From the NCBI GenBank assembly GCA_965207885.1, contig OZ242311.1:736001-800000 (forward strand): a stretch of 64,000 nucleotides of DNA, given 5' to 3'. A program made the translations under genes and the position numbers. The notes beneath the pieces were generated by a model. That model was not told the DNA's origin. It saw nothing but the letters and a program-made list of their open reading frames with translations, and did not search any database. This document shows positions 33,847 through 56,555 of this stretch, piece after piece. The stretch is from Candidatus Latescibacterota bacterium (lineage in GTDB: Bacteria; Latescibacterota; UBA2968). How positions within the stretch are numbered: position 1 is the stretch's first letter; each line of letters opens with the position of its first letter.

Positions 33847-34193
33847 GTGTGTTAGAGGCGTTTGACAATCCGAATCCAGAGCGGCGTTATACGATTGAGT
33901 TTACGTTTCCGGAGTTTACGTCGCTGTGTCCCAAGACGGGGCAGCCGGATTTTGCGACGATTGTGATCTGGTATGTTCCGGGTCCGCGGTGTGTGGAGTT
34001 GCGGTCGCTGAAGCACTATTTCTGGTCGTTCCGAGATCAGGGGATTTATATGGAGCCTGTGACGAATCAGATTTTGAACGATCTGGTAGATCTGTGCGAT
34101 CCGATTGAGATGGAGGTGATCAGCCGTTTCAATATTCGCGGTGGTGTAGATCACGAGATTACGGCGTCGTATCAGCGGGCAGATGAGGGGTAG
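33843..34193 (+). CDS. queF: preQ1 synthase / nitrile reductase QueF (type I)
   Basis: EFTSLCPKTGQPDFA, ELRSLKHY, RGG. Confidence 0.85.
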   Translation: MSVLEAFDNPNPERRYTIEFTFPEFTSLCPKTGQPDFATIVIWYVPGPRCVELRSLKHYFWSFRDQGIYMEPVTNQILNDLVDLCDPIEMEVISRFNIRGGVDHEITASYQRADEG

Positions 34194-36111
34194 AGAAACC
34201 CCGCTCATTCTCACCCACCGCAGGCTTCGACGCACCGAAGATCACATCAACCCCTCTGCCTTGAAGGGCTGGAATGTGCGTGTTGATTGATGTGGCACTT
34301 AGCGGGTTTCCTCTCAAATCAACCCTATCTTCACTGCTCAATCCCGTATTTGCCACTAATGGCGAGATATCCACGATGGTGTTGTAGTTAAGATATAGCC
34401 ATTTCAGACCGGTCAAGCCTGAGAGTACCGATATGTCCGAGATGGTGTTGCGCGAAAGACTTAGCCCCGTCAGATAGTTTAAGCCCGCCAGTGCCGAGAC
34501 ATCCGAGATCGCGTTTTCGCCAAGCGCCAGATATACCAGATTTGTCAAGTTCGCCAGTGCCGAGACATCTGAGATCGCGTTTTCGCCAAGCGCCAGTATT
34601 ATCAGGTTGGTCAAGCCTGCCAGTGCCGACACATCTGAGATCGCGTTGCCGCCAAGCCCCAGCCTTTCCAACCTGGTCAAGCCCGCCAGTGCCGAGACAT
34701 CTGAGATCGCGTTGCCGCCAAGCCCCAGCACTATCAGGTTGGTCAAGCCCGCCAGTGCCGACACGTCCGAGATGTTGTTAGAGCTAAGATCCAGTCCTAT
34801 CAGGTTGGTCAAGCCTGCCAGTGCCGACACGTCCGAGATGTTGTTAGAGATAAAATTCAGCCCTTCCAGATTTGTCAAGTTCGCAAGCGGCGATATATCC
34901 GAGGTAAAGTTGTCTCTAAGATCCAGTCGTTTCAGATTTGTCAAGTTCGCAAGCGGCGATATATCCGAGGTAAAGTTGTCTCTAAGATCCAGTTCTTCCA
35001 GATTTGTTAAGTTCACAAGCGGCGATATATCCGAGATTAAGTTATGCCGTAGCCATAGCGTTGTCAGACTGGTCAAGTGCCCCAGCGCGGATACATCTGT
35101 AAGGCCAGTGAAGGAAAGCTCCAGGCTTGTCAGGTTGGTCAGGCTTGATAATGGCGAGAGGTCGTATATACGGTTACTATTACTCCAACCTGCATCAAAC
35201 ACGTGCTCCATACCAAGATTTAAACTTGTCAGACGAGTTGCAAACTCCAGTCCGGTCAAATCTCTGATGTTCGAGTTCGGCACTTCCAGAACGGTCAAGC
35301 TCGCTATCTCCCTCCTTCTGATCGGCGCACCACTCGCCTTGCCCAGACTGTCCGCAATGACCGCACGCAGGTTTGCATCTGGAATGTCAACGATCAATGT
35401 ACTGCCACCGCCAGAAGAAGGCCCTCCTTTGCCAAAGCTGCTGCTAAAAAGCAGAAAATCGCCAAAGCCAATCGCACCATCGCTGTTCAGATCGTACTTC
35501 GCTTCATATCGCCCATCGCCCTGATGTGCCCCAAACTGACCCGCAAACGCTAAAAAGTCGGAAAAATTAACCATACCATCGCCGTCGAAGTCCGATGTGA
35601 GGGCTTGAAACTGTAACTCAACGCGCGTATTCAGGGTTACAGCCTCAAATTGCCCACCCCGACTGAGTTCTGCACGCACCAACCGAATTGCCGTGCCTGA
35701 AAATCCGGCTGTTGTGCGAAAGCGAACTGTACCCACCAGACCGCTGTTGGCAGTTGCTTGACCACCGAGAGATGCGATGCCAATCTCGACAAAACCTGTA
35801 CCTTGCTCTGGGAGTGCCTGAGCATTGGGCAATACGTCTCCCACGCCAAAGCCCTCGTAAGTCACTTGACTGGCATCGTATTCAAAGCGCACCGCAAGGC
35901 CGTTCGCATTTTGTATATCTTTGCCGAAGATCTGAATGGCGACAACCTGATCAGCAGACACATTGAGGGACGTGACCGCTTGATCACCCGCGGTATCATT
36001 TACATCCAGCGATAGGGAAAAGCTATTTTGTGCCGAAAGAGACGGGGGGTGTATCAGAAGCGCGAGTATTGATAAAATTGATAGAATTAGATTCCGCATC
36101 GGTTTCTGCAT
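34159..36111 (-). CDS. Secreted cohesin-like + EF-hand/dockerin-like + internalin-like LRR protein
   Basis: Signal peptide; beta-rich N-domain; DFDGDGMVNFSDF/DLNSDGAIGFGDF pair; IPDANLR cap and ~14 22-aa LRRs. Confidence 0.85.
   Translation of the reverse strand: MQKPMRNLILSILSILALLIHPPSLSAQNSFSLSLDVNDTAGDQAVTSLNVSADQVVAIQIFGKDIQNANGLAVRFEYDASQVTYEGFGVGDVLPNAQALPEQGTGFVEIGIASLGGQATANSGLVGTVRFRTTAGFSGTAIRLVRAELSRGGQFEAVTLNTRVELQFQALTSDFDGDGMVNFSDFLAFAGQFGAHQGDGRYEAKYDLNSDGAIGFGDFLLFSSSFGKGGPSSGGGSTLIVDIPDANLRAVIADSLGKASGAPIRRREIASLTVLEVPNSNIRDLTGLEFATRLTSLNLGMEHVFDAGWSNSNRIYDLSPLSSLTNLTSLELSFTGLTDVSALGHLTSLTTLWLRHNLISDISPLVNLTNLEELDLRDNFTSDISPLANLTNLKRLDLRDNFTSDISPLANLTNLEGLNFISNNISDVSALAGLTNLIGLDLSSNNISDVSALAGLTNLIVLGLGGNAISDVSALAGLTRLERLGLGGNAISDVSALAGLTNLIILALGENAISDVSALANLTNLVYLALGENAISDVSALAGLNYLTGLSLSRNTISDISVLSGLTGLKWLYLNYNTIVDISPLVANTGLSSEDRVDLRGNPLSATSINTHIPALQGRGVDVIFGASKPAVGENERGFSTPHLPADTTP
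34400..35160 (-). repeat. 66-bp tandem coding repeats (LRR units)
   Basis: Recurring GCCAGTGCCGA(G/C)AC(A/G)TC(T/C)GAGAT and GCAAGCGGCGATATATCCGAGGTAAAGTTGTCTCTAAGATCCAGT at 66-bp spacing. Confidence 0.9.
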
Positions 36112-36187: not shown

Positions 36188-36871
36188 TTAGTTATTTATC
36201 GCCAGTCGCGTCGCTTCTAAGAACGTTTCGTAGTTCCAAGAACCATTAAGCTTACGGACAATCACACCCCTGGCGTCCAGAAAGAAAGATGTGGGATAGC
36301 CTGTAACCTCATACGCATTGTTCACTTCTCCCGTCGAGTCGAGAACAAAAGTCCAGGTGTACCCGTATCCTGTGACAAAACGCTGCACCTGGATGCGTGT
36401 TTCTCGTACGTCAATGCCGACGATCTGGATAGAGTCGCCCATGGTATTTTGCAATTTTTGCATGGCGGGCATTTCAATAATACAGGGACTACACCAGGTT
36501 GCCCAGAAGTTGAGGAATACGGGTTTGCCGCGCTGTTCATAGAGGTTGAATGATTCGCCAGTGAGGGTTCTCAGCGTAAAGTCAGGGGCTTGCATCCCAA
36601 CTTGAATACCAACGGGAGCTGTTGGGACAGGTGTGGTTGTTGTTTCCTGCCCGTAGAATTGGGCAAAAATGACAAAGTCCCGAAAATCGACTGCGCCATC
36701 CCCGTTCAGGTCAAACCGGGTCTGGGTTGTCCCATACCCCTGTGAAAATGCGATAAAATCGGCAAAATCCACTTTGCCGCTGTTATTGAAATCGCAATCT
36801 GATGGGGTTGCCGCTGCGTGTACATAGGCAGGTAGGAGCAGTAATATCAATGTGAGGACATACTTAAACAT
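36188..36871 (-). CDS. Secreted TlpA/ResA-like thiol-disulfide oxidoreductase with N-terminal EF-hand/dockerin-like tag
   Basis: NFWATWCSPC, YPTSFF; DFNNSGKVDFADF/DLNGDGAVDFRDF. Confidence 0.88.
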   Translation of the reverse strand: MFKYVLTLILLLLPAYVHAAATPSDCDFNNSGKVDFADFIAFSQGYGTTQTRFDLNGDGAVDFRDFVIFAQFYGQETTTTPVPTAPVGIQVGMQAPDFTLRTLTGESFNLYEQRGKPVFLNFWATWCSPCIIEMPAMQKLQNTMGDSIQIVGIDVRETRIQVQRFVTGYGYTWTFVLDSTGEVNNAYEVTGYPTSFFLDARGVIVRKLNGSWNYETFLEATRLAINN

Positions 36872-37169
36872 GAGCATACCTCCAGAAAATGCAGGCATAT
36901 TCATTTAAAAGTAGCAGGCAACTTTCGTGCCAAAAGTATCTTTTCTATTTAATAATATTATGCGAAATAATTTTTAAAAAAATAGCCAATTAAAAACTCG
37001 TTGTCAAGATTAGAGTGCGAAATAATTAGCAGTATTTTTGATGTCCAGAATGAATGCCCACAATCGGACCATCCACAAAATAAAAAGCAAGCGTGAAGCA
37101 TGCCCAAATCATTCAGATGAGAGACGTGAAGGGTAATAAAATTAGTGCAACGACGAAGGGAGTATATGT

Positions 37170-43044: not shown

Positions 43045-43902
43045 ATGGATGCGCGCGAGCGATATTTCTGGGATTTGACGGGATACCTCGTCGTGAAAGG
43101 CGTGTTGTCAAAGGAGGAGGTTGCACGGGCGAATGATATTGTGGATCGCTACTGGGATCGGGTTGAGGTCGGCGGTTCAACGGCGAGGAAGTCGGTTGCT
43201 TTTGCCGGTACGGGACGTCCTATGTTGCCCGGTATTCTCGAGTTTCCAAAACCCGATTGCGATCCTTTCAGGGAGATGCTGGCACATCCGGTGCTGGTGC
43301 AGTATCTCAATGTGATGTGTGGCAAGGGTTTTCGGCTGGATCACGGTCCGATGTTTATTGTGAGTAATAAGGGTACGGCAGGCCATACGATGCACGGGAA
43401 TGGCGAGCCACATCGGCCGTATGTTGCGTATCACCATCAGAATGGCAAGCCGTGGGTGGGTGGTGTGACTGTGGCGTGGCAGTTGCACGATTGCGAGGAG
43501 GGTATGGGGGGATTTGCCTGTGTGCCATCGAGCCATAAGTCGATGTTTCCGATGCCCAAAGGTGTGAGTACAGGAGACGACGATATGGGCTTGATCAAGC
43601 AGCCAGTGGTGGAGGCTGGCGATGTTGTCTTTTTTATGGATAGCGCGCAATCACACGGGGCAACGCCGTGGAAGCTGGATACGACGCGGCGGTCCATTTT
43701 GTTCAAATACACAGCGCGCACATGTGTGCGCAGCGGTCTTGCACGGGAGGTGTCGCCGCCTGAGATTTATTGGGATCGAGAAATTGTCGAGGATATGACG
43801 CCCGAGCAGTTGTCGGTTATGTATGGTCCTTATTCCAATCACAGGGGCCGCGTGCCGTCTCTGGAGGTCTGTGATGATGGGGTCGTGCGGATAGAGGCGT
43901 AG
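43045..43902 (+). CDS. PhyH-fold Fe/2OG enzyme, HxN variant
   Basis: RYFWDLTGYLVV, FRLDHGP, MHGNG, SHG..PW, RRSILFKY. Confidence 0.85.
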   Translation: MDARERYFWDLTGYLVVKGVLSKEEVARANDIVDRYWDRVEVGGSTARKSVAFAGTGRPMLPGILEFPKPDCDPFREMLAHPVLVQYLNVMCGKGFRLDHGPMFIVSNKGTAGHTMHGNGEPHRPYVAYHHQNGKPWVGGVTVAWQLHDCEEGMGGFACVPSSHKSMFPMPKGVSTGDDDMGLIKQPVVEAGDVVFFMDSAQSHGATPWKLDTTRRSILFKYTARTCVRSGLAREVSPPEIYWDREIVEDMTPEQLSVMYGPYSNHRGRVPSLEVCDDGVVRIEA

Positions 43903-43925
43903 TATAAGAATAGGAGCGTTTTACC

Positions 43926-44795
43926 ATGGGTAATAATCTTTATACAGTGAGCGAAGAGGAGAAGTACTTTTTTGATTTGCGCGGCTATCTGGTCGTGCGG
44001 GGTGCTCTGTCTGCGGATGAGGTCAAGGCGTGTAATGATGCGATTGATCACTATGGGGATGAGATCAGGACGCGGTCTATTGAAGATGGCGGCCTGGCGC
44101 GGGGTTCGTCCGTGCTTACGGGGAAAGAGGGCAGGCGCGAGCTTACGGGTATGTTGGGCTGGCCCGAACCCTATCGCGAGCCGTTTCGGAAGTTGCTGGT
44201 TCATCCGGTTGTGGTGAGTCGTTTGAATGAGTTTAGCGGTAAGGGTTTTCGCCTGGATCACGGACCCCTGTTGATTAGCGCGCACAAAGGAGCAGAAGGT
44301 CATACACTGCACGGCGGTGGCGAGCCGTTTAGCCAGTCGGTGTGGTATCACCAGCAGAATGGGAAGATTTTTTGTCGGGGTATTACAGTGGCGTGGCAAT
44401 TGACGGATGTGAATGAGGGCGATGGTGGTTTTGCCTGTGTGCCAGGGAGCCATAAGACTGCGGAGCCGACACCTGCTGAGGTGCGTTCTGTAGAGGACGA
44501 TATGGGGCTGGTTTATCAACCGGTGATGAAGGCGGGCGATGTGCTATTTTTTGCGGAGACGATGACGCATGGTACGCTGCCGTGGTGCAGCGATGGGGAG
44601 CGGCGTTCTGGGCTTTATAAGTACGCTTCTCGCGCAGCGGCTCGCGCTGTGGGTAAGTATTTTACGCCCGAGGATCGCTATGGCGATTGGGTCAGTGAAT
44701 TGACGCCTGAACAACAAGCGGTTTTGTACGGTCCCGGGGTTCACGGCCAGTTGCCCCTGCTGGAGTCCGATGGCGAAACAACGCGGGTTGTGTAG
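43926..44795 (+). CDS. PhyH-fold Fe/2OG enzyme, HxG variant
   Basis: KYFFDLRGYLVV, FRLDHGP, LHGGG, VPGSHK, THGTLPW. Confidence 0.85.
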   Translation: MGNNLYTVSEEEKYFFDLRGYLVVRGALSADEVKACNDAIDHYGDEIRTRSIEDGGLARGSSVLTGKEGRRELTGMLGWPEPYREPFRKLLVHPVVVSRLNEFSGKGFRLDHGPLLISAHKGAEGHTLHGGGEPFSQSVWYHQQNGKIFCRGITVAWQLTDVNEGDGGFACVPGSHKTAEPTPAEVRSVEDDMGLVYQPVMKAGDVLFFAETMTHGTLPWCSDGERRSGLYKYASRAAARAVGKYFTPEDRYGDWVSELTPEQQAVLYGPGVHGQLPLLESDGETTRVV

Positions 44796-44945
44796 AAGTT
44801 ATCAGCAGTCAGCGGTCAGCAGTCAGGAAATCAGAGGTTTTAGAGCCGTCATTGCGGCAGGGTTCAAGCCGCAATCCAGAGGGTGTGGATGGGTGGGGTG
44901 CTGAAAGCTGATGGCTGAAAGCTGATCGCTCACAAGGAGCAAACG

Positions 44946-45845
44946 ATGGATGCCAGAGAGCGATACTACTGGGATGTGACGGGACATCTGGTGGTGCGCG
45001 ATGTTCTGTCGCAGGAAGAATTGGATGCGGTGAACAATGTGTTGGATTACGTCATTGGCACTGGTATTGTTCACCAGAGTGAGGATAATCACGGGGCAGC
45101 AGATTCTACGTTTTTGCGGGGGACGGGTTCGCGCTGGGTACACGGTACCAGTTTGCTGGAGTTGCCCCTGCCGTATTGCGATCCTGTTCGCAATTTGCTG
45201 GCTCATCCGGTTGTTGTGAAGTATTTGAATGTGATGTGTGGGAAGGGTTTCAGGCTGGATCACGGTCCCCAGTTCAATAATGCGGTGAAGGGTACGGCGG
45301 GTCTGGTCATGCACGGCGCGGGGGAGCCGCATCGAGAATATGTGGCTTATCACCATCAGAATGGCGAGATGTATTGCGGCGGGGTGACTGTGACGTGGAA
45401 TTTGACGGATTGTCCAGCGGGTAAGGGGGGATTTGCTTCGGTGCCCGGGTCACATAAGTCGAAGTTTCAGATGCCGATTGGGGTTCGCAATTGCGATGAG
45501 GATATGGGTGCGGTTGCCAATCCGGGGATTCGAGCCGGCGATGTGCTGTTTTTTATGGATGGGGCGCAATCCCACGGTACGCATCCGTGGCAAAATGATC
45601 ACGACCGCAGGTCTATTCTTTTTAAGTACGCTTCCCGCACAGCGACGCGACAGGGTCCGTCGAATGCGGTTTGTCATCCCGAGATATTTTGGGATCGGGA
45701 TATTGTAGATGGGATGTCGATGGAGGAGCGCGCGGTGATGTACGGTCCGTGTTCTGCACCGCCGAGCGATGAGATGTTTCTGGTGGTTGAAGATGATGGT
45801 GCGGTTCGGCTGGAGAATACGCGGGATCAACAGGCTGCGGATTGA
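44946..45845 (+). CDS. PhyH-fold Fe/2OG enzyme, HxA variant
   Basis: RYYWDVTGHLVV, FRLDHGP, MHGAG, VPGSHK, SHGTHPW. Confidence 0.85.
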   Translation: MDARERYYWDVTGHLVVRDVLSQEELDAVNNVLDYVIGTGIVHQSEDNHGAADSTFLRGTGSRWVHGTSLLELPLPYCDPVRNLLAHPVVVKYLNVMCGKGFRLDHGPQFNNAVKGTAGLVMHGAGEPHREYVAYHHQNGEMYCGGVTVTWNLTDCPAGKGGFASVPGSHKSKFQMPIGVRNCDEDMGAVANPGIRAGDVLFFMDGAQSHGTHPWQNDHDRRSILFKYASRTATRQGPSNAVCHPEIFWDRDIVDGMSMEERAVMYGPCSAPPSDEMFLVVEDDGAVRLENTRDQQAAD

Positions 45846-45916: not shown

Positions 45917-45958
45917 AGAGGCTCCTGGAGATGCGATCTTCAGGAGCCTTTTATTTTT
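45917..45958. terminator. Probable terminator between convergent genes
   Basis: AGGCTCCTGGAGA-tgcga-TCTTCAGGAGCCT followed by T-rich run. Confidence 0.7.
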
Positions 45959-47498
45959 ACTCCGCATATTGATTGGCGAAGATGATAAAGTCGGTAAAGT
46001 TGATGTGTCCATCTCCGTTGAGGTCAAAGTGTCGCTGATAGCTGGTGTCGCCCCGGTTCAGGCCAAAGTTCTGGACGAATAGGAGAAAGTCGGCGAAGTC
46101 CCGTTGTCCATTGCCATTGAAGTCTATGCTTATTTCGCCGCCCCTGCCAACGGTGAGGGCGATGTTTTCGTCGCCTATTTGGTAGGGTATGTATTCCATG
46201 ACCGCCAGGAGCATTTCATCGGTGGTTTTGTCGCCCCATGTCAAGTTGCGGGGGGGATAATTGGGGTTGAGTGGGTTGTTTGTGGTGTTGTCGTAGGTGG
46301 TGATGGCGTGGATTTGGGATCCCGCAGCTATTTTTTGATATTGGGTGAAGGTGTAATTGCCCTGCCAGTTAAAATCCCAGTCCTGGATACGGATGAGGTT
46401 GGTGCGGTTGCCCTGTGGGTCCGTGGCATAGATTTCCCAGGATTTGCCCAATAAGTGCATGTGGGGATAGATGGACAGGAGGCTGATGTCCCGATTGATG
46501 AAGAGTGTTGTGCGAAATGTTTTGATTTGATCTTTCGGGATGACAAAGAGGTCGTCGATTTTGATTTTTTCTACGGGGGTGCCGCCGTGTCGCTCCTCCC
46601 CGAGCAGGACTCTGAATATTCTGCTCAGTGTTTTACCGTCGGTGGTGAGCGGTGCAAAGCTGATAAAGCCCACTTCTCTTTCGATGGGTTCTTTTTTGAA
46701 GAATATGTTGATGCTGGATTGATCGGATTCTGCAAGGGGCCAGGGTGCGTAGTGTACCTGGATCAGTAAGTCGGAGTTTTTGGGCAGTATGTGTCCAACG
46801 CCTTTGGGATATATCGGGGGTTTTGCGCCGGGTGTATATCCGGGGAGGACAACAGCGGTTGGCGCGCCGAATGCACCAAAGGATTCGTAACCGTATTCTT
46901 CCGGGGTTTCGAGGTCTCTTTGGCGGGCAGTGCCCGTGATGTCGGCGCCGATGAGGGCGTGGTGAACGATTCTGCTGTTGCCGGGGCGAAATTCAACGGC
47001 TTCGACTTCCCGGTCTTCTGTGAGGTGGGTTGGGATGACAAAGACCTGGTACTGGTCCTCGTTGTCGCCGCGGATTGTAAAGGGTTCTGCCATTGTGAGT
47101 ACGAGGTCGGGGGTGCCGAGTACAGAGCCTGTTGGAAATTCCGGCATGGGTGCTTCAAGGGCGATATCGCCCTGGGGAAAGCCGGCGTTGACCCAATTTG
47201 AGATGGTGTTGATTTCTGTTTTGGTGAGTGTTCTCGCGCCGATGTGCTGGCTGTAGTTGTAATCGGGTTTCCACGGGGGCATGTACTGGGTTTCTGTGAC
47301 GTATTTGATCATGTCTGCATATGCCGCGATTTCGCTGTAATTTGTGAGGGGCATAGGCCCTATTTCACCGTTGCGATGACACGATGTGCAGTTGTTGTAT
47401 ATGATTGACGAGACGTGTTCGCTAAAGGTGGGGGCTTTCGCGTGCGGCGAGGCAACGGCGAGGAGGATCGCGAGTATGGAGAGGGTAAGTGGTCGCAT
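45957..47498 (-). CDS. Secreted cytochrome c + copper type II (PHM/DBH-like) monooxygenase with C-terminal EF-hand/dockerin-like tag
   Basis: CTSCH heme motif, IVHHA, PHMHLLG, WDFNWQ, DEM; DFNGNGQRDFADF/DLNGDGHINFTDF. Confidence 0.82.
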   Translation of the reverse strand: MRPLTLSILAILLAVASPHAKAPTFSEHVSSIIYNNCTSCHRNGEIGPMPLTNYSEIAAYADMIKYVTETQYMPPWKPDYNYSQHIGARTLTKTEINTISNWVNAGFPQGDIALEAPMPEFPTGSVLGTPDLVLTMAEPFTIRGDNEDQYQVFVIPTHLTEDREVEAVEFRPGNSRIVHHALIGADITGTARQRDLETPEEYGYESFGAFGAPTAVVLPGYTPGAKPPIYPKGVGHILPKNSDLLIQVHYAPWPLAESDQSSINIFFKKEPIEREVGFISFAPLTTDGKTLSRIFRVLLGEERHGGTPVEKIKIDDLFVIPKDQIKTFRTTLFINRDISLLSIYPHMHLLGKSWEIYATDPQGNRTNLIRIQDWDFNWQGNYTFTQYQKIAAGSQIHAITTYDNTTNNPLNPNYPPRNLTWGDKTTDEMLLAVMEYIPYQIGDENIALTVGRGGEISIDFNGNGQRDFADFLLFVQNFGLNRGDTSYQRHFDLNGDGHINFTDFIIFANQYAE

Positions 47499-48099: not shown

Positions 48100-49338
48100 T
48101 TAGTCCAGTAATTTGCCGCCGCCAAACATGGTGGCGATGTCGCGCTGGATGTCCGCCGGGGTGAGGGGCCAGCCCGCAGCGCGAAGCGATTCGTATTTGT
48201 CGATGAAGACGGGGGCGATGACGCCGATGGAGTGGGTCCATTTGTAGAGGAGTTGGTCCAGGATGCGGGCGTCGGAGTGCTGGGGTACAAAGCTGGTGCC
48301 GAGGAGTTCGAGGCGTTCGGCTGTGATTTCCCGGATGATGCTGGGGTTGTTCAAGAACCACCAGCAGCCAAAGGGGTGTACGTTGGGGAATTTGCGGCCC
48401 GTGACGCAGAGTTCGTGCTGGTTTTCGCGCGAGAGGAGTGTGATGAGGAAGTTGACGTCGGGCCAATCGCGTGCGATGCGTTCGAGGTTGGCGATGTCCC
48501 ATTTGCCCAGGCTGTCGCCGCCGTCTTTGAGGGTTGGGTTGACCTGTCGGGTGACGCCGATCATCATTGCCGAGGGGATTTGCAGTTCCCGGGCTGTGGG
48601 ATATACGACGTTGCCCATCATTTGGGAGATGCTGTCTTCAGAGGGGTAGGCAAAGTCCGGGGGGAGCGATATGGCCATGTATCGGGCGTTCATTTTTTGT
48701 GCCCAGTCGGTGAGGTAGCGACGCAGTTCCGAGAAGGTTTTGTCGGTTAGGTGGTCTTCGACGTCGTATCCCAGGCCGCGGAGTTTGCCGGCGGGGGCGG
48801 GCCAGTTCATGAGCGCGCTGTCCAGGCGCAGGACAGCCCTGAAGCGCGAGTCGATGTCTATGCCCTGTTGCCACATGGGTCCTTCGGTGTCGTCGAGGGG
48901 GTCGTTGGTCATATAGACGCAGGCGACGCCGGCGCTTTCAAAGACCATGTCGGTGTATTCTTCAGGTGTTTTTGAGTTGTGGAATGCGCGAAATTCGGAC
49001 AGGTCTTTTGCGCGGGGGTTCAGTCCCAGGCGGTTCATGACGGTGACGATGCCGAGTTGGGCTTCGGATATTGGGGAGCTGTTGCCGACGAAGAGTTGTT
49101 GCCAGATGATGTCGGCCTGTTCTGTGGTGGGCATGTTGTTGAATGTGTCAACTGCGATGCCTTCGGGCAACATGCGCGAGCATTCGGCTTTGAGATAGTG
49201 ATAGGTCAATAGTTCGTCGGGTCCCGCCAGGTAGAGTTCGCCCATGGAGGCGGGGTAGAGGTGGGTGTGTATATCGACGATGGCGTGGTTTTGAAATGCG
49301 TTGTGTACGGCTTCTGCGATTGAAAAATCGGACATCAT
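48100..49338 (-). CDS. Uronate (glucuronate) isomerase, Bh0493-type
   Basis: DIHTHL, LLTYHYL, MTNDP, FGCWWF, PQHSDAR. Confidence 0.85.
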   Translation of the reverse strand: MMSDFSIAEAVHNAFQNHAIVDIHTHLYPASMGELYLAGPDELLTYHYLKAECSRMLPEGIAVDTFNNMPTTEQADIIWQQLFVGNSSPISEAQLGIVTVMNRLGLNPRAKDLSEFRAFHNSKTPEEYTDMVFESAGVACVYMTNDPLDDTEGPMWQQGIDIDSRFRAVLRLDSALMNWPAPAGKLRGLGYDVEDHLTDKTFSELRRYLTDWAQKMNARYMAISLPPDFAYPSEDSISQMMGNVVYPTARELQIPSAMMIGVTRQVNPTLKDGGDSLGKWDIANLERIARDWPDVNFLITLLSRENQHELCVTGRKFPNVHPFGCWWFLNNPSIIREITAERLELLGTSFVPQHSDARILDQLLYKWTHSIGVIAPVFIDKYESLRAAGWPLTPADIQRDIATMFGGGKLLD

Positions 49339-49581: not shown

Positions 49582-49610
49582 TTGCATAAACCACTGTTTT
49601 TGTGTATATT
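49582..49610 (+). promoter_or_regulatory. tnpB promoter (leaderless transcript likely)
   Basis: TTGCAT-N17-TATATT, ATG at 49617. Confidence 0.65.
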
Positions 49611-49616
49611 TACATT

Positions 49617-50723
49617 ATGGAATACTTAACATACAAATACAAAATGTATAGTCTCTGTGATCGCAATATGTATATCCATAGGGATATAGATTCTTTTGCT
49701 GAGGTGTATAATCATTTCATTGCCTTGCACAAGCGATACTATCGGCGTTTTGGCAAATATCCGAGTAAGTTCACAATGATTAACCATTTGGCAAAGCTGA
49801 AAAGAACAACACGCTTTGCACATTGGCGTTTGTTGCCGTCACAGGCATTGCAAAATGTGGTTGAGCGTATAGACTTTGGCTATCAGAAATTCTTTGCCAG
49901 AGATAATAAGCGTCCGCCCACATTCAGGTCTCGCTTTCGGTATCAGTCCTATACGCTGAAGCAAGCAGGATACAAATTCCTCGAGCGTAACAAGGTGCGT
50001 ATTGGCAAGCGTATATTCAGATACCATAAGAGCAGAAAGTTCGATGTAGAGCGTATCAAGACGGTCACAATCAAACGTGACCGCGTAGGCGATTTGTGGC
50101 TATGTGTTGTTGCAAAAGCTGGGGGTATCAAGTCATTCATTATCAAGAACGGTAAAACCGCAGGTTTTGATTTTGGCTTGCAAATATATCTAACAGCCTC
50201 AGACAGCACAAGGACACAATCGCCATTGTTCTTCAATCGTAATTCGAGGAAAGTCAAAAAGGCTCATCGCAATCTTTCTCGTAAGAAGAAAGGTAGCAAC
50301 AATCGTCACAGGGCAAGAGTAAATCATGCCAGAGTGCATAGGCGCGTTGCTAATCAGCGCAGAGACTATCACTGGCAACTTGCCTATCAACTGTGTAAAG
50401 ACTATGACGTAATGTATTTTGAAACGCTGAATATCGACGCCATGAAAGCGTTGTGGGGCAGAAAGATTAGCGATTTGGGCTTCTCAGACTTTTTGAACAT
50501 TCTCAAGTATGTTGCCAAAAAGACGGGCAAGGTTGTCAAACAAATCGACAAATGGCTACCCACGTCAAAGACATGCTCTGCTTGTGATACAGTGAAAGAG
50601 AATCTTGAATTGCGAGAGAGAACATTCCATTGTTGCGCATGTGGCCTTGAGATGGATAGAGACCTCAACGCGGCGATAAACATTCACAGGTGGGGGCGTC
50701 CACCTATGGCGGAGGTAGCGTAA
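49617..50723 (+). CDS. tnpB: RNA-guided endonuclease TnpB
   Basis: RuvC I GFDFGL, RuvC II YFETLN, Zn finger CSAC..CCACG, RuvC III DRDLNAAINI all intact. Confidence 0.92.
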   Translation: MEYLTYKYKMYSLCDRNMYIHRDIDSFAEVYNHFIALHKRYYRRFGKYPSKFTMINHLAKLKRTTRFAHWRLLPSQALQNVVERIDFGYQKFFARDNKRPPTFRSRFRYQSYTLKQAGYKFLERNKVRIGKRIFRYHKSRKFDVERIKTVTIKRDRVGDLWLCVVAKAGGIKSFIIKNGKTAGFDFGLQIYLTASDSTRTQSPLFFNRNSRKVKKAHRNLSRKKKGSNNRHRARVNHARVHRRVANQRRDYHWQLAYQLCKDYDVMYFETLNIDAMKALWGRKISDLGFSDFLNILKYVAKKTGKVVKQIDKWLPTSKTCSACDTVKENLELRERTFHCCACGLEMDRDLNAAINIHRWGRPPMAEVA

Positions 50724-50846: not shown

Positions 50847-52044
50847 CATAGTACACGACAAAAAATAAAAGACCTGTGAAAAAAGCTAAAAAGAGTTAGG
50901 TTTGAATGTCCCAAGACAAACCTTTCTCATCTTAACAAGGCACAGGTCTATGTCTCCTGAAACTATTGAACTTCAAACGATTATGCAAGGATATTTTCAC
51001 TGGCATAAAGCCCGAATAACGTTTACCGCTGCGTTCATATTGTCGCTGATAAAATTGCGTAGCGTCAATTTTATGAAACTGGCAAACGCACTCAATGGAA
51101 CCGTCAAGCAGAAATCTAATTATCGTCGTATCCAACGCTTCTTTGCCCACTTTGCCTTACCCTATGCGTGTGTGAGACAATTGATCTTGCACTTATTACC
51201 TATAAAGTCGGATTTTATAGTCTCAATAGATCGCACCAATTGGAAGTTGGGAAAATTCAATATCAACATCCTAACCGCAGGCATTATCTATGAAGGGGTC
51301 GCCTTTCCTATCTGTTGGCACTTGTTAAAAAAACGGGGCAATTCCAATAGTGATGAGCGTATCCATTTGATGCAAGAAATGCTCAACTGCATCTGCAAAT
51401 CGCATATCCGCGTTGTCGTCGCAGACAGAGAATTTATTGGAAGAGAATGGTTTAGGTGGTTAGACACACAAAATATACCCTTTGTTATTCGCATCAAGGA
51501 AAACGCTCTTGTCTCATCAGGCGGTAGAGAGATCCCCATAAGAAAACGGTTTGAAAATCTTAATATCCATCAGCAGGTCAACTTGTGCAAACGCCACCGC
51601 GTTTATGACCTGCCTGTATATCTGTCTGCACTAAGATTGAAGGACCAATACCTCATTCTTGCCAGCAACCAAAAAGGTCAAGCCGCATTGGATACCTATA
51701 AAAAACGATGGGGCATTGAAGTCCTTTTTGCCAATCTTAAAAGTCGAGGATTTAATCTGGAAGAGACCCATCTTATACATCAAGACCGCATTGAGAAACT
51801 CATCGCGCTTTTGGCCATTGCCTGCATCTGGGCGCATATCATCGGCGAATGGATAGCAAAAACAAATCCTTTGACGATCAAAAATCACGGGCGGATGGAG
51901 AAAAGTCTCTTCCGATATGGGTTGGACTATTTGCAGTATGTCCTGCTCAATATAAACCAACAAACCCAACAGTTCCTCATATGCATTCGTTTACTGAGTA
52001 ATCCGCCACTGTTTAAAACAATTTAAGTTTTGTCGTGTACCATG
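50847..52044 (+). mobile_element. IS4-family insertion sequence, copy 2
   Basis: TIRs CATAGTACACGACAAAA / TTTTGTCGTGTACCATG; perfect 9-bp TSD ATAAAAGCC (50838-50846, 52045-52053). Confidence 0.92.
50902..52026 (+). CDS. IS4-family DDE transposase
   Basis: Homologous to 14858-15973; IDRTNW, ADREF, YKKRWGIEVLF. Confidence 0.92.
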   Translation: MNVPRQTFLILTRHRSMSPETIELQTIMQGYFHWHKARITFTAAFILSLIKLRSVNFMKLANALNGTVKQKSNYRRIQRFFAHFALPYACVRQLILHLLPIKSDFIVSIDRTNWKLGKFNINILTAGIIYEGVAFPICWHLLKKRGNSNSDERIHLMQEMLNCICKSHIRVVVADREFIGREWFRWLDTQNIPFVIRIKENALVSSGGREIPIRKRFENLNIHQQVNLCKRHRVYDLPVYLSALRLKDQYLILASNQKGQAALDTYKKRWGIEVLFANLKSRGFNLEETHLIHQDRIEKLIALLAIACIWAHIIGEWIAKTNPLTIKNHGRMEKSLFRYGLDYLQYVLLNINQQTQQFLICIRLLSNPPLFKTI

Positions 52045-53073: not shown

Positions 53074-53913
53074 ATGGTTCCAGATCTCGATGTTTATTTG
53101 TTTGATTTGCGCGGGTACTTGCATTTGGAGGGGGCGCTGACGGATGATGAGGTTCAGGTGTTGAACGATTGTTTGGATGAGATTCCCGCGCTGAAGCCGG
53201 GGGAGTGGTACGGGTATGTTCAAGGCCATTCGTATGGCGATGTGACGTCGGGGATCAATTATCAGCAGATTTACGAGGCGGGCGAGCCGTTTGAAGATCT
53301 GATTGATCATCCGTCGTGGTTCGAGCATGTGAAGCTTTTTATCGGTGCGGAGGGGACGTTTGATCACCATCACGGTCCGATGTTTATCGATGAGTGTTTG
53401 GCAAATTTTCGCGAGCCGGGCGAGGCGATTGGCTTGCATTCGGGTGGGTTTCCGCCGATTGCGAGGAATCAGTTCCGGTATCACGGGGGGCGGTTTATGT
53501 GCGGGCAGGTCAATGTGCTGATGGCGCTGACGGATATCGGTCCGGGCGATGGGGGGACGATGTTGATTCCGGGGAGTCACAAGTCGAATTTCAGGCATCC
53601 GTATTACGATAAGCAGAGGATGGGAGAGGACAGGTCTGTGGATGGGACGGTGGGCGCGATTGAGGTGTTTATGAAGGCGGGCGATGCGCTCGTTTTTGTG
53701 GATGGAATTTCACACGGGTCGGCGAAGCGGGTGAATGCGGGGACGCGGCGCATTGTGGTGTATCGATACGGGCCTTCGTGGGGGAATTTCCGGCACGGGT
53801 ACCAGCCTTCGCCAGAGTTGCTGGAACGCCTCACGCCTCAACGCCGCCGTATTGTGCAACCGCAAGTGCTGCTCCCAAGGGAACCGCAGGTGAAAGATAA
53901 GAGTGAGCTGTAA
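53074..53913 (+). CDS. PhyH-fold Fe/2OG enzyme, HxG variant
   Basis: YLFDLRGYL, LHSGG, IPGSHK, SHGS, RRIVVYRY; RBS AAGGAG. Confidence 0.85.
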   Translation: MVPDLDVYLFDLRGYLHLEGALTDDEVQVLNDCLDEIPALKPGEWYGYVQGHSYGDVTSGINYQQIYEAGEPFEDLIDHPSWFEHVKLFIGAEGTFDHHHGPMFIDECLANFREPGEAIGLHSGGFPPIARNQFRYHGGRFMCGQVNVLMALTDIGPGDGGTMLIPGSHKSNFRHPYYDKQRMGEDRSVDGTVGAIEVFMKAGDALVFVDGISHGSAKRVNAGTRRIVVYRYGPSWGNFRHGYQPSPELLERLTPQRRRIVQPQVLLPREPQVKDKSEL

Positions 53914-54842: not shown

Positions 54843-56555
54843 TCAATTGCCAAAACTCTGAACAAAAATTAGAAAATCTTCAAGGTCGATGGAACCACTA
54901 CTGTCTAAGTCTGCTGTCGCGTTAAATGCAGGATCGCCAATTTTTTTTCCAAAACTCTGAACAAAAATCAGAAAGTCCGCAAGATCTACCTTGCCGTTGC
55001 CGTCTAAATCTGGATTTGGAATAGTGGTAGATACCCACTCGGGGGCGTCAACCATAACGCTGGCATAGATTTCGTCTATTTGCTTTTTAAGCCGGGCAAC
55101 GATGTCTGGATGTTGGCTTGCGATATTTGTCTGCTGCCCGATATCGACAGATAAATCGTACAGCTCCACCCGACCGATGCCTCCGGCTTTGATTGCAGGG
55201 ATTGAAGCCTCCGGAAATTGGTTCAGTTTTATATATTGCATGCGCAGCTTCTCCGCCTCCGGGTTGTCAAACCTTCTGTTGATCATCTGAGTCCGATCGA
55301 TATTTTCCTCGCCCATTATTTCTCCGATCTGCTCCAGTATGGCATTCATAGCATCCCGATTATTTGGCAAGCTAAAGTTGCGAAATCCAATCAGCGTATA
55401 ATTGCCCTTTCTGAGCGACATAGCGGGCCATCCTTCTGGCCTCAGCCAGAACAGCGGTTTATGGCGTTGGAATTGATTCGCATTTCCAGTTAGCAATGGC
55501 GTAAGGTCAGAACCATCCAGATAAACGCCCTCGGGTTTGTCGATACCGAGCAATCCGCAAATCGTCGGTAGTAGATCGACCATGCCAGCAGGTTCATGCG
55601 CAACGCGTCCTTGCGTAATCCGACCAGGGGCATAGAAAATACCCGGTACGCGGTGGCCGCCTTCAAAGTTAGAGCCTTTCTGGCCGCGCAAATTGCCGAC
55701 GCGGTCTGAGCGATAGCTGCCGTTGTCAGATGAGTAAACAATGATCGTGTTTTCCAGCGAGTTGATCTGCCGCAGTTTGGATAACAAACGGGCAATTGCC
55801 CGGTCGGTATTGTCAACCGTGGCGGTATAAATCGCCGCGGGATCATTCAAGCGGCCGTATTGCGAGACAATTTCGTCTGGCGCGGCAAGCTGAGCATGCG
55901 GTTCGTGAAACCATATATTGAGAAAAAAGGGCGCATTGGAATCGCGCTCATTGTCCAACCACGAGATCGCTTCATCGACGACAATCTGGCAGGCATACCC
56001 TTCAATTTTTCCGACCCGCTCGCCGTTGCGAATAAAGTTCACGGGATTTCTGTGGCTTGGGTTGGCATTGTTTTCTGTGGCAAACCAGTAGTCAAAGCCG
56101 TGCATGTCCGGCGTGGGTTTGTTCTTGCCCCTATACGGCAGACCCAGATGCCATTTGCCAAAGTGCGCTGTGGCATAGTTGTGTTCCTTCAGAACCTCGG
56201 CCAACGTTGTCTCGCGCTCCAGCAAATGCATGTTGTGATGAATGTCGCTAATTGCATTGTAAACACCTGCGCGTATGTGATGCCGCCCGGTCAGTGCCAC
56301 GGCACGCGAGGGTGAGCAGATCGCACACCCGGCATGAAAGTCCGTGAAGCGCACACCTTTTGCCGCCATCTCATCCAGCGTTGGCGTCATGGCGGGTCCG
56401 CCGTAACAGCCAATATCCTTCCACCCCAGATCATCGACAAATAGAACCACCACATTGGGCGACATACCCGCGGCACACGCGCGCGAGTTCATTGATGCCA
56501 ATAGAAACCACAGGACAAATGATAAAATAGAGAGAGCAAGTGATCTGATATTTAT
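54843..56555 (-). CDS. Secreted arylsulfatase with C-terminal EF-hand/dockerin-like tag
   Basis: CSPSR, GKWHLG, SSDNG; tag DLDGNGKVDLADF/DLDSSGSIDLEDF; signal peptide begins at ATA 56555. Confidence 0.88.
   Translation of the reverse strand: MNIRSLALSILSFVLWFLLASMNSRACAAGMSPNVVVLFVDDLGWKDIGCYGGPAMTPTLDEMAAKGVRFTDFHAGCAICSPSRAVALTGRHHIRAGVYNAISDIHHNMHLLERETTLAEVLKEHNYATAHFGKWHLGLPYRGKNKPTPDMHGFDYWFATENNANPSHRNPVNFIRNGERVGKIEGYACQIVVDEAISWLDNERDSNAPFFLNIWFHEPHAQLAAPDEIVSQYGRLNDPAAIYTATVDNTDRAIARLLSKLRQINSLENTIIVYSSDNGSYRSDRVGNLRGQKGSNFEGGHRVPGIFYAPGRITQGRVAHEPAGMVDLLPTICGLLGIDKPEGVYLDGSDLTPLLTGNANQFQRHKPLFWLRPEGWPAMSLRKGNYTLIGFRNFSLPNNRDAMNAILEQIGEIMGEENIDRTQMINRRFDNPEAEKLRMQYIKLNQFPEASIPAIKAGGIGRVELYDLSVDIGQQTNIASQHPDIVARLKKQIDEIYASVMVDAPEWVSTTIPNPDLDGNGKVDLADFLIFVQSFGKKIGDPAFNATADLDSSGSIDLEDFLIFVQSFGN

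Follow-up and report, generated by a model that had tools for sequence, protein, structure and literature searches.

The window analysed here is a stretch of 64,000 nucleotides from a Candidatus Latescibacterota bacterium (assembly GCA_965207885.1, contig OZ242311.1, positions 736,001 to 800,000), and positions of window genes are counted from its first letter. It encodes four proteins of the PhyH fold, designated P1 to P4, which lack the acidic residue of the canonical HxD/E iron motif. Based on their motifs and motif conservation, the closest solved relative and the gene pairing and fusions observed, P1 to P4 are most probably Fe(II)/2-oxoglutarate (2OG) oxygenases of a HygX-like branch of the PhyH fold with a complete, relocated metal triad, in which the P2 type is paired with the P1/P3 type. 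HygX of Streptomyces hygroscopicus is an Fe(II)/2OG oxygenase responsible for orthoester formation in hygromycin B.

In the proposed active site, the iron would be held by two histidines and one carboxylate, with the carboxylate supplied from another position. The residue two past the first His is small or polar (N, G, A and G in P1 to P4), and the putative ligand acid is located at the end of the strand preceding the distal His (E211 in P2, D216 in P4, D199 in P1 and D205 in P3). In P1 and P3, this acid lies five residues before the distal His as the loop is one residue longer, and an Arg 11 residues past the distal His would bind 2OG. Since a complete triad leaves no free halide site, halogenation would not be expected; the expected reaction would be a hydroxylation or a related oxidation, e.g. 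a cyclisation or desaturation. The substrate would not be carrier-bound and would probably be polar. Proteins of the E-x3-H type (P2) and of the D-x4-H type (P1, P3) would act as a heterotypic dimer.

Genes and iron-site motifs

P1 to P3 are encoded by three open reading frames (ORFs) on the plus strand and comprise 285, 289 and 299 amino acids. They were assigned to PhyH with Pfam PF05721, each above the family cut-off. P1 (43045..43902; PhyH E 1.5e-10) belongs to the D-x4-H subtype and its AlphaFold2 (AF2) model has a predicted local distance difference test value (pLDDT) of 91.2. P2 (43926..44795; E 3e-14; pLDDT 94.7) represents the E-x3-H subtype and P3 (44946..45845; E 3.5e-11) is again of the D-x4-H subtype. 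A fourth subfamily member, P4 (53056..53913, plus strand, 285 amino acids, E 1.3e-17), is of the D-x3-H subtype. Two canonical paralogues are present in the same window, namely P5 (39051..39860, plus strand), which was recognised from its ORF, its Pfam PhyH match and the alignment and has the motif HVD, and P6 (53923..54846, minus strand, E 3.7e-36), which has HQD.

The first motif reads M-H117-G118-N119 in P1 (His codon at 43393), L-H129-G130-G131 in P2 (44310), M-H123-G124-A125 in P3 (45312) and L-H128-S129-G130 in P4 (53437). All four proteins have a conserved D or E four or five residues ahead of the distal His. This yields D199-x4-H204 in P1 (codons 43639 and 43654), E211-x3-H215 in P2 (44556 and 44568), D205-x4-H210 in P3 (45558 and 45573) and D216-x3-H220 in P4 (codon of D216 at 53701). 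The arginines following the distal His are R215-R216 in P1, R226-R227 in P2, R221-R222 in P3 and R231 in P4, and P1 to P3 retain both the distal His (SHG/THG) and the RRS segment.

A preliminary description of this DNA had read the HxD position of P1 to P3 as MHGN, LHGG and MHGA, with identical His codons, had reported that the distal His and the Arg strand are kept and had set these proteins apart from two ordinary PhyH genes with HVD and HQD, all of which our reading confirms. Its count of three tandem copies is also correct, although P4 with its LHSG motif and the conserved D or E ahead of the distal His were overlooked.

P1 shares 51% identity with P2, 58% with P3 and 26% with P4. In a maximum-likelihood tree of 38 domains, P4 falls in a separate D-x3-H clade (support 99/94). 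Eleven of the 20 loci with the closest P2 relatives (P2 identity of at least 87%) contain a P3-like gene, defined by the best blastp match with at least 83% identity.

Possible ligand swap within the genome

The window belongs to a single 6.23-Mb contig, in which 189 ORFs with PhyH-like matches were found, with 187 domain units spanning both motifs. The first motif was classed by two independent alignments, which were combined because jackhmmer, when seeded with canonical sequences, aligned the first His of P3 and P4 wrongly. The acid was read in a column whose position is set by the GD strand ahead of it. Simply counting acids by their distance from the His proved misleading, as 27 of 117 canonical paralogues then turned out positive, and the strand-anchored column was used instead. 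In 28 of the 187 units the class remained unresolved.

Among the 43 units with a non-acidic residue two past the first His, 41 have D or E in the anchored column and two have none; there were no ambiguous cases and no unit lacked the distal His. For the 116 canonical HxD/E units, the corresponding values are 6 with the acid, 104 without it, 4 read ambiguously by the two alignments and 2 lacking the distal His. Comparison of the presence of the acid with the class of the first motif resulted in a Fisher p value of about 3e-28, in which independence is overstated since the paralogues share ancestry. Within the window, the column is acidic in P1 to P4 and is occupied by His in P5 and by Gly in P6.

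Conservation of the relocated acid

Homologue sets were compiled for P2 (best 120, 60-99% identity) and for P1 (120, 50-97% identity). The E-x3-H motif is present in 119 of the 120 P2 homologues, with a truncated protein as the sole exception, and D-x4-H in 119 of the 120 P1 homologues. Where an acid is present in the x4 subtype, it is Asp in every case, and Glu does not occur. The residue two past the first His is A (57), G (39), S (23) or Q (1) in the P2 set and A (50), S (36), N (27), Q (4) or, once each, R, T and G in the P1 set. With the acid kept in 119 of 120 members of both sets while the residue two past the first His drifts, the relocated acid is, as judged from these alignments, constrained far more strongly than the supposed halide-gate residue.

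The wider subfamily comprises 4067 representatives at E ≤ 0.001, the best 150 of which were aligned for reading of the motifs, yielding 111 catalytic-type domains. None of the 111 has D or E two past the first His and, by this comparison, the non-acidic residue in P1 to P4 is therefore no chance substitution. D or E in the relocated column was found in 92 domains (87 with x3 and 5 with x4 spacing).

HygX as the closest solved relative

When P2 alone was compared with the Protein Data Bank (PDB), HygX (4XC9, 4XCA, 4XCB, 4ZPI) was the best sequence match with an E value of 1.1e-8 and ranked first among 7 distinct sequences at E ≤ 1. A profile of 90 family members matched HygX at 5.8e-30, followed by ectoine hydroxylase at 8.8e-17, CytC3 at 7.3e-7 and SyrB2 at 1.1e-6. 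In the profile alignment, the LHGG of the family falls on the LHGG of HygX and the family motif F-x-E-x3-H-G on N-E-A-L-M-H-G. According to the text available from a review (PMC13374393), the iron site of HygX is of the form H-X-G ... E-X3-H, with the carboxylate relocated.

Structure comparison yielded the same neighbour. In a Foldseek search with the AF2 model of P2, HygX chains rank first (E 2.8e-16). The matches were re-ranked with VIA-align, for which 50 entries were listed per model. HygX was obtained with Z 23.1 for P2 (root-mean-square deviation 2.3, 213 residues aligned, next entry 21.6) and with Z 24.6 for P1 (2.8, 212 residues, next entry 20.4). SyrB2, CytC3 and human aspartate/asparagine beta-hydroxylase (AspH) do not occur among the 50 entries listed for the P1 or P2 model, which is no evidence of differing folds.

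The secondary structure assigned by DSSP to the AF2 models consists of a strand from V194 to D199 in P1 and from V206 to A210 in P2, the latter followed directly by E211. Relative to the GD anchor, position +6 is occupied by the Asp in P1 and P3, by E211 in P2 and by Glu in HygX, and the additional residue of P1 sits in the loop after the strand.

Window proteins and HygX thus have in common the PhyH fold, an H-x-G motif in place of HxD, the E-x3-H motif, which aligns residue for residue with P2, and an Arg retained after the distal His. However, the sequence identity is only 19-23%, and the Pfam scan of the window neighbours revealed no genes of aminoglycoside or orthosomycin biosynthesis around P1 to P4. 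The window proteins are also about 10 residues longer between the FRLD strand and the first His, P1 and P3 have an Asp with one additional loop residue (D-x4-H), and a paired or fused architecture was not found described for HygX. In sequence, P1 to P4 appear to resemble HygX at the metal site, without being its orthologues.

The preliminary description had considered that an alternative ligand might exist, with the FRLDHGP segment or the Glu of GEP as its source. The relocated acid would bear out the idea in spirit, but not these residues. The Glu of GEP was rejected as an iron ligand as it is replaced by Phe in P4, and the D and H of RLDHG were rejected as they align to Leu and Glu in HygX. 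Across 115 catalytic-type domains, the FRLD Asp reaches a conservation of 79%, and the His next to it lies outside the set of columns conserved to 70% or above. In a predicted complex of P2 and P1, the interface includes residues 106-111 (KGFRLD) and E133 of P2 and residues 94-98 and E121 of P1. The FRLD stretch is thus included up to D111 in P2 and up to L98 in P1, and the His after it is not among the interface residues. Because these residues fall in the predicted interface, a subunit contact would explain the conservation of FRLD and GEP without a metal role.

Gene pairing, fusions and predicted dimer

P2 relatives were located in 53 loci of metagenome-assembled genomes (MAGs) titled Latescibacterota, Poribacteria, Gemmatimonadota and Dehalococcoidia. 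Identity to P2 is 87-98% in the closest Latescibacterota and 63-76% in the other three phyla. In 50 of these loci, spread over four phyla, an E-x3-H gene and a D-x4-H gene lie next to each other; the three exceptions are a short contig, a G-x4-H locus and a locus not resolved by the motif pattern. Across phyla, nothing but the pair itself is conserved in the neighbourhood. Genes for sulfatases, apiosidase-like, heparinase-like and BNR proteins recur loosely near the pair and indicate no substrate. Separately, an identity of 63-76% between P2 orthologues is high for different phyla. The sequences suggest gene exchange among sponge symbionts.

The genome also encodes six proteins of about 600 amino acids with two PhyH domains (C1:3887836-3889599, 4961308-4963113, 4959464-4961269, 5138406-5140175, 3883057-3884889 and 1841098-1842882). 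Their N-terminal domains are best matched by P2 in all six cases (174-196 bits compared to 143-166 for P1) and their C-terminal domains by P1 (256-272 bits compared to 213-224 for P2). In all six, the N-terminal domain has lost the first His and has Gln at the distal His, while the C-terminal domain is intact with D-x4-H. Among the fused representatives of the wider subfamily with both domains aligned, the first His is absent from the N-terminal domain in 8 of 8. In the tree mentioned above, P2 clusters with the N-terminal domains (98/90), and P1, P3 and one more paralogue with the C-terminal domains (100/99). The two clades are sisters (95/90), with the two canonical outgroups on long branches.

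The predicted P2+P1 complex reached a score of 0.86, compared to 0.00 for the best of three controls, although a pair of homodimers would be indistinguishable by this score from a heterodimer, the two paralogues being 51% identical. Of 157 solved complexes, 116 attain the mark applied to such scores, as do 2 of 215 mismatched pairs; the P2+P1 prediction, unlike this calibration, was run with its own alignments and with iron along. Contact agreement between the runs was at least 93% and the pLDDT of the partners at least 90. A similarity to PhyH-fold dimers of known structure, TlxIJ (7VBQ) among them, may also account for the score. No iron contacts were reported for the complex predicted with two Fe ions.

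The fungal heterodimer TlxI/TlxJ (PDB 7VBQ) is comparable in that it consists of two paralogous PhyH-fold subunits encoded together, and both of its chains are among the fold matches (Z 21.1 and 19.9). According to the excerpted text of PMC12141560, TlxI is a catalytically dead partner of TlxJ that supports the catalytic subunit, and the fused bacterial relatives likewise have one dead half. The systems differ in that the triad of TlxJ is canonical and that both partners keep all catalytic residues in the window; moreover, the bacterial dimer is a predicted one.

These observations allow a more far-reaching proposal, which we regard as possible but rather doubtful. The P2 type and the P1/P3 type would form an obligate heterodimer across sponge-symbiont lineages of four phyla, repeatedly fused with a dead first half, and the carboxylate would have changed its position one or more times and disappeared from some lineages, with acid-less members outside this window as possible two-His sites of unusual chemistry.

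Alternative explanations

Several observations weigh against a complete HygX-like triad. Six canonical HxD units of the genome also carry the acid in the anchored column, so that the acid alone is no proof of ligation. Among canonical paralogues, 27 of 117 have an acid at a distance of five from the distal His, and so do ectoine hydroxylases; in both groups it is located at +5 from the GD anchor, on the opposite face of the strand. In P1 and P3, the acid aligns to the HygX-type column with a one-residue insertion following it, and it lies five, not four, residues before the His. Nineteen of the 111 catalytic-type domains read from the best 150 of the 4067 representatives have G, A or, once, H in the relocated column, and the acid is therefore dispensable in some lineages. 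Eleven of these 19 share the x4 spacing of P1 and P3, so that the acid can be lost in this branch as well. Lys137, which in HygX would fill the vacated site, corresponds to Thr in P1 to P3 and to Asn in P4 in the alignments, and the statement on the HygX motif was taken from the available text of the review PMC13374393 rather than from the primary paper. We infer metal ligation by E211, D216, D199 and D205 from alignment and conservation; the dimer and the chemistry of P1 to P4 are inferences as well. Compared with each other, ligation by the acid of P2 and P4, which share the HygX spacing, appears well supported, and ligation by that of P1 and P3 less certain.

The most serious of the alternatives, although an unlikely one, is that P1 to P4 are two-His oxygenases like AspH, in which the conserved D or E would act in the second sphere or in substrate binding and the products would still be oxygenated. 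As described in the accessible text of PMC10947486, AspH is a 2OG hydroxylase found in nature whose iron is chelated by two His only, with the canonical carboxylate missing. It belongs to another branch of the fold and has no relocated acid, and was likened to the window proteins by description only. Since AspH hydroxylates without the carboxylate, an H-x-G motif alone does not imply halogenation. The two-His arrangement would also fit the six genome units in which the column acid coexists with a canonical Asp and is not needed as a ligand, and the 19 representatives without acid. On the other hand, in HygX, the nearest solved relative, the ligand comes from precisely this position, the complementarity of 41/43 compared to 6/116 fits a swap of the ligand position, and the exclusive use of Asp in the x4 subtype suggests a geometric constraint.

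The 19 representatives with neither acid are P0123, P0125-P0128, P0131, P0134, P0140, P0147, P0148, P0157, P0170, P0176, P0184, P0218, P0224, P0249, P0255 and P0259. At the column of R151 of P2, D or E was observed in 63% of them compared to 2% of the rest. These acid-less relatives may have the ligand at yet a third place or hold iron by two His alone, and they, not the window proteins, are the real candidates for a two-His site.

The preliminary description had proposed P1 to P3 as candidate Fe/2OG radical halogenases. In such enzymes, two His would hold the iron with a halide in the third site, an arrangement that could apply at least to P1 and P3 with their acid displaced by one residue. 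The mark used for Fe/2OG halogenases in the excerpted text of PMC13519999, a non-acidic residue two past the first His, is indeed present in P1 to P4 (HGN, HGG, HGA and HSG). An ungapped count from the His moreover puts a Ser four residues before it in P1, as in SyrB2 and CytC3, and some x4-type relatives have no acid at all. SyrB2 and CytC3 (PDB 2FCT and 3GJA), which depend on a carrier protein, share the PhyH fold and the non-acidic residue with the window proteins. Their motifs were read by bridging through a SyrB2-like paralogue of the same genome, which gave H-Q-A for the first motif and F-W-S-x-x-M-H for the second, i.e. a Ser at the position where P1 to P4 have D or E. Their sequence matches are weak, with E values of about 1e-6 compared to 6e-30 for HygX. 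In a halogenase no carboxylate would be available to the iron, which, at the level of sequence, does not describe P2 and P4, as E211 and D216 align with the Glu of HygX. In P1 and P3, the conserved D199 and D205 are in the strand register of the HygX Glu, yet five residues before the His. The conservation of D-x4-H in 119 of 120 P1 homologues, in which A, S, N, Q, R, T and G all occur as the supposed halide-gate residue, speaks against this proposal.

Family models and gene context point in the same direction. Scores for the NCBIfam model TIGR01762 ('chlorinating enzyme', cut-off 226.3 bits) are 16.4 bits for P2 and 13.9 bits for P4, far below the cut-off, and P1 and P3 gave no match at E ≤ 0.1. 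In a search of the whole genome, none of 41 matches exceeded the cut-off and P1 to P4 were not among them. The top match (94.2 bits) has the canonical motif WHQD. The two highest-scoring proteins, C1:3470877-3471617 and C1:505988-506740 (94 and 68 bits, below the cut-off), combine WHQD with a Glu four residues before the distal His and look like hydroxylase relatives of SyrB2. Pfam scans of 12 neighbours in the window and 25 neighbours in three distant loci detected no carrier protein, nonribosomal peptide synthetase (NRPS) or polyketide synthase (PKS), so that the carrier-protein context of SyrB2 and CytC3 is missing around P1 to P4. The neighbour scans and the genome survey agree with the description of an expanded, freestanding, non-canonical PhyH subfamily outside any NRPS/PKS context. 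With the relocated acid at the position of the HygX Glu and TIGR01762 scores so far below the cut-off, the halogenase assignment itself is not supported, and we consider it very improbable. Even slightly less credence is given to the idea that one or more of the tandem copies are non-catalytic scaffold partners in the manner of TlxI. This would have a precedent in TlxI (excerpted text of PMC12141560) and in the P2-like N-terminal domains of the fusions, which lack the first His and usually the second too (6/6 in the genome, 8/8 among the representatives). In each of P1 to P4, however, the two His, the acid and the Arg are all retained, and these residues are conserved in their homologues.

Taken together, the genes in the window probably encode ordinary oxygenases. 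P1 to P4 are best seen as new members of the known HygX-type relocated-carboxylate oxygenases, with the D-x4-H motif and the paired form as a new variant.

Genomic setting

Poribacteria, which are sponge symbionts, show an exceptional abundance of pfam05721, with more than 1.9% of genes (Kamke et al. 2014, PMC3909097, excerpted text). The 189 ORFs with PhyH-like matches of the present genome resemble this expansion. The iron-site variant and the gene pairing are not mentioned in the excerpted text of that study, and the closest records here carry the title Latescibacterota. Literature searches, with a coverage that does not extend to subscription journals, retrieved no paper on the iron site or the pairing of this clade.

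Public sponge metagenomes from several studies contain this DNA. Four RNA libraries yielded contigs of 90-95% identity that cover P1 and P2, and one contig of 1843 nucleotides spans both. This is only a hint of expression, as the contigs derive from relatives and carry-over of DNA is possible.

The spacer between P2 and P3 contains a palindromic dispersed repeat (44844..44884), located outside the enzymes, with a 30-nucleotide core that occurs 24 times in the genome with up to 3 mismatches. The element looks like a dispersed repeat of the repetitive extragenic palindromic (REP) type. Many unrelated metatranscriptome contigs end in it. A second hairpin is located downstream of P3 (45859-45892).

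A gene for an IS605 OrfB/TnpB-like protein with a Cas12f1-like TNB domain (49602-50723) and a DDE transposase gene (50902-52026) lie in a patch of low GC content (0.426) between the gene at 48100-49338 and a HAD hydrolase gene. In most 2-kb bins of the window, the plus strand shows a strongly positive GC skew (G over C) of about +0.1 to +0.35. Dockerin-type domains were found on four proteins encoded on the minus strand, namely a Cu-monooxygenase-like protein with CxxCH (45957-47498), a thioredoxin-like protein (36188-36904), a sulfatase (54843-56501) and a leucine-rich repeat protein (34159-36111).

Significance

New elements of this analysis are the D-x4-H subtype, the contingency table within one genome, the conserved pairing of E-x3-H and D-x4-H genes, the fusions and the predicted dimerisation. 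If the proposed dimer is real, the paired unit would be a widespread bacterial counterpart of the fungal TlxI/TlxJ. According to the excerpted text of PMC13519999, annotation pipelines apply the rule that H-x-G/A denotes a halogenase. The clade described here breaks this rule with 4067 representatives and dozens of copies in single sponge-symbiont genomes. Given its size and its non-acidic motif, a screen for the motif would therefore yield many false halogenase calls, which a second check for D or E four or five residues before the distal His would remove. Pairing and fusion of the two subtypes provide a testable lead to the organisation of the large PhyH expansion of sponge symbionts.

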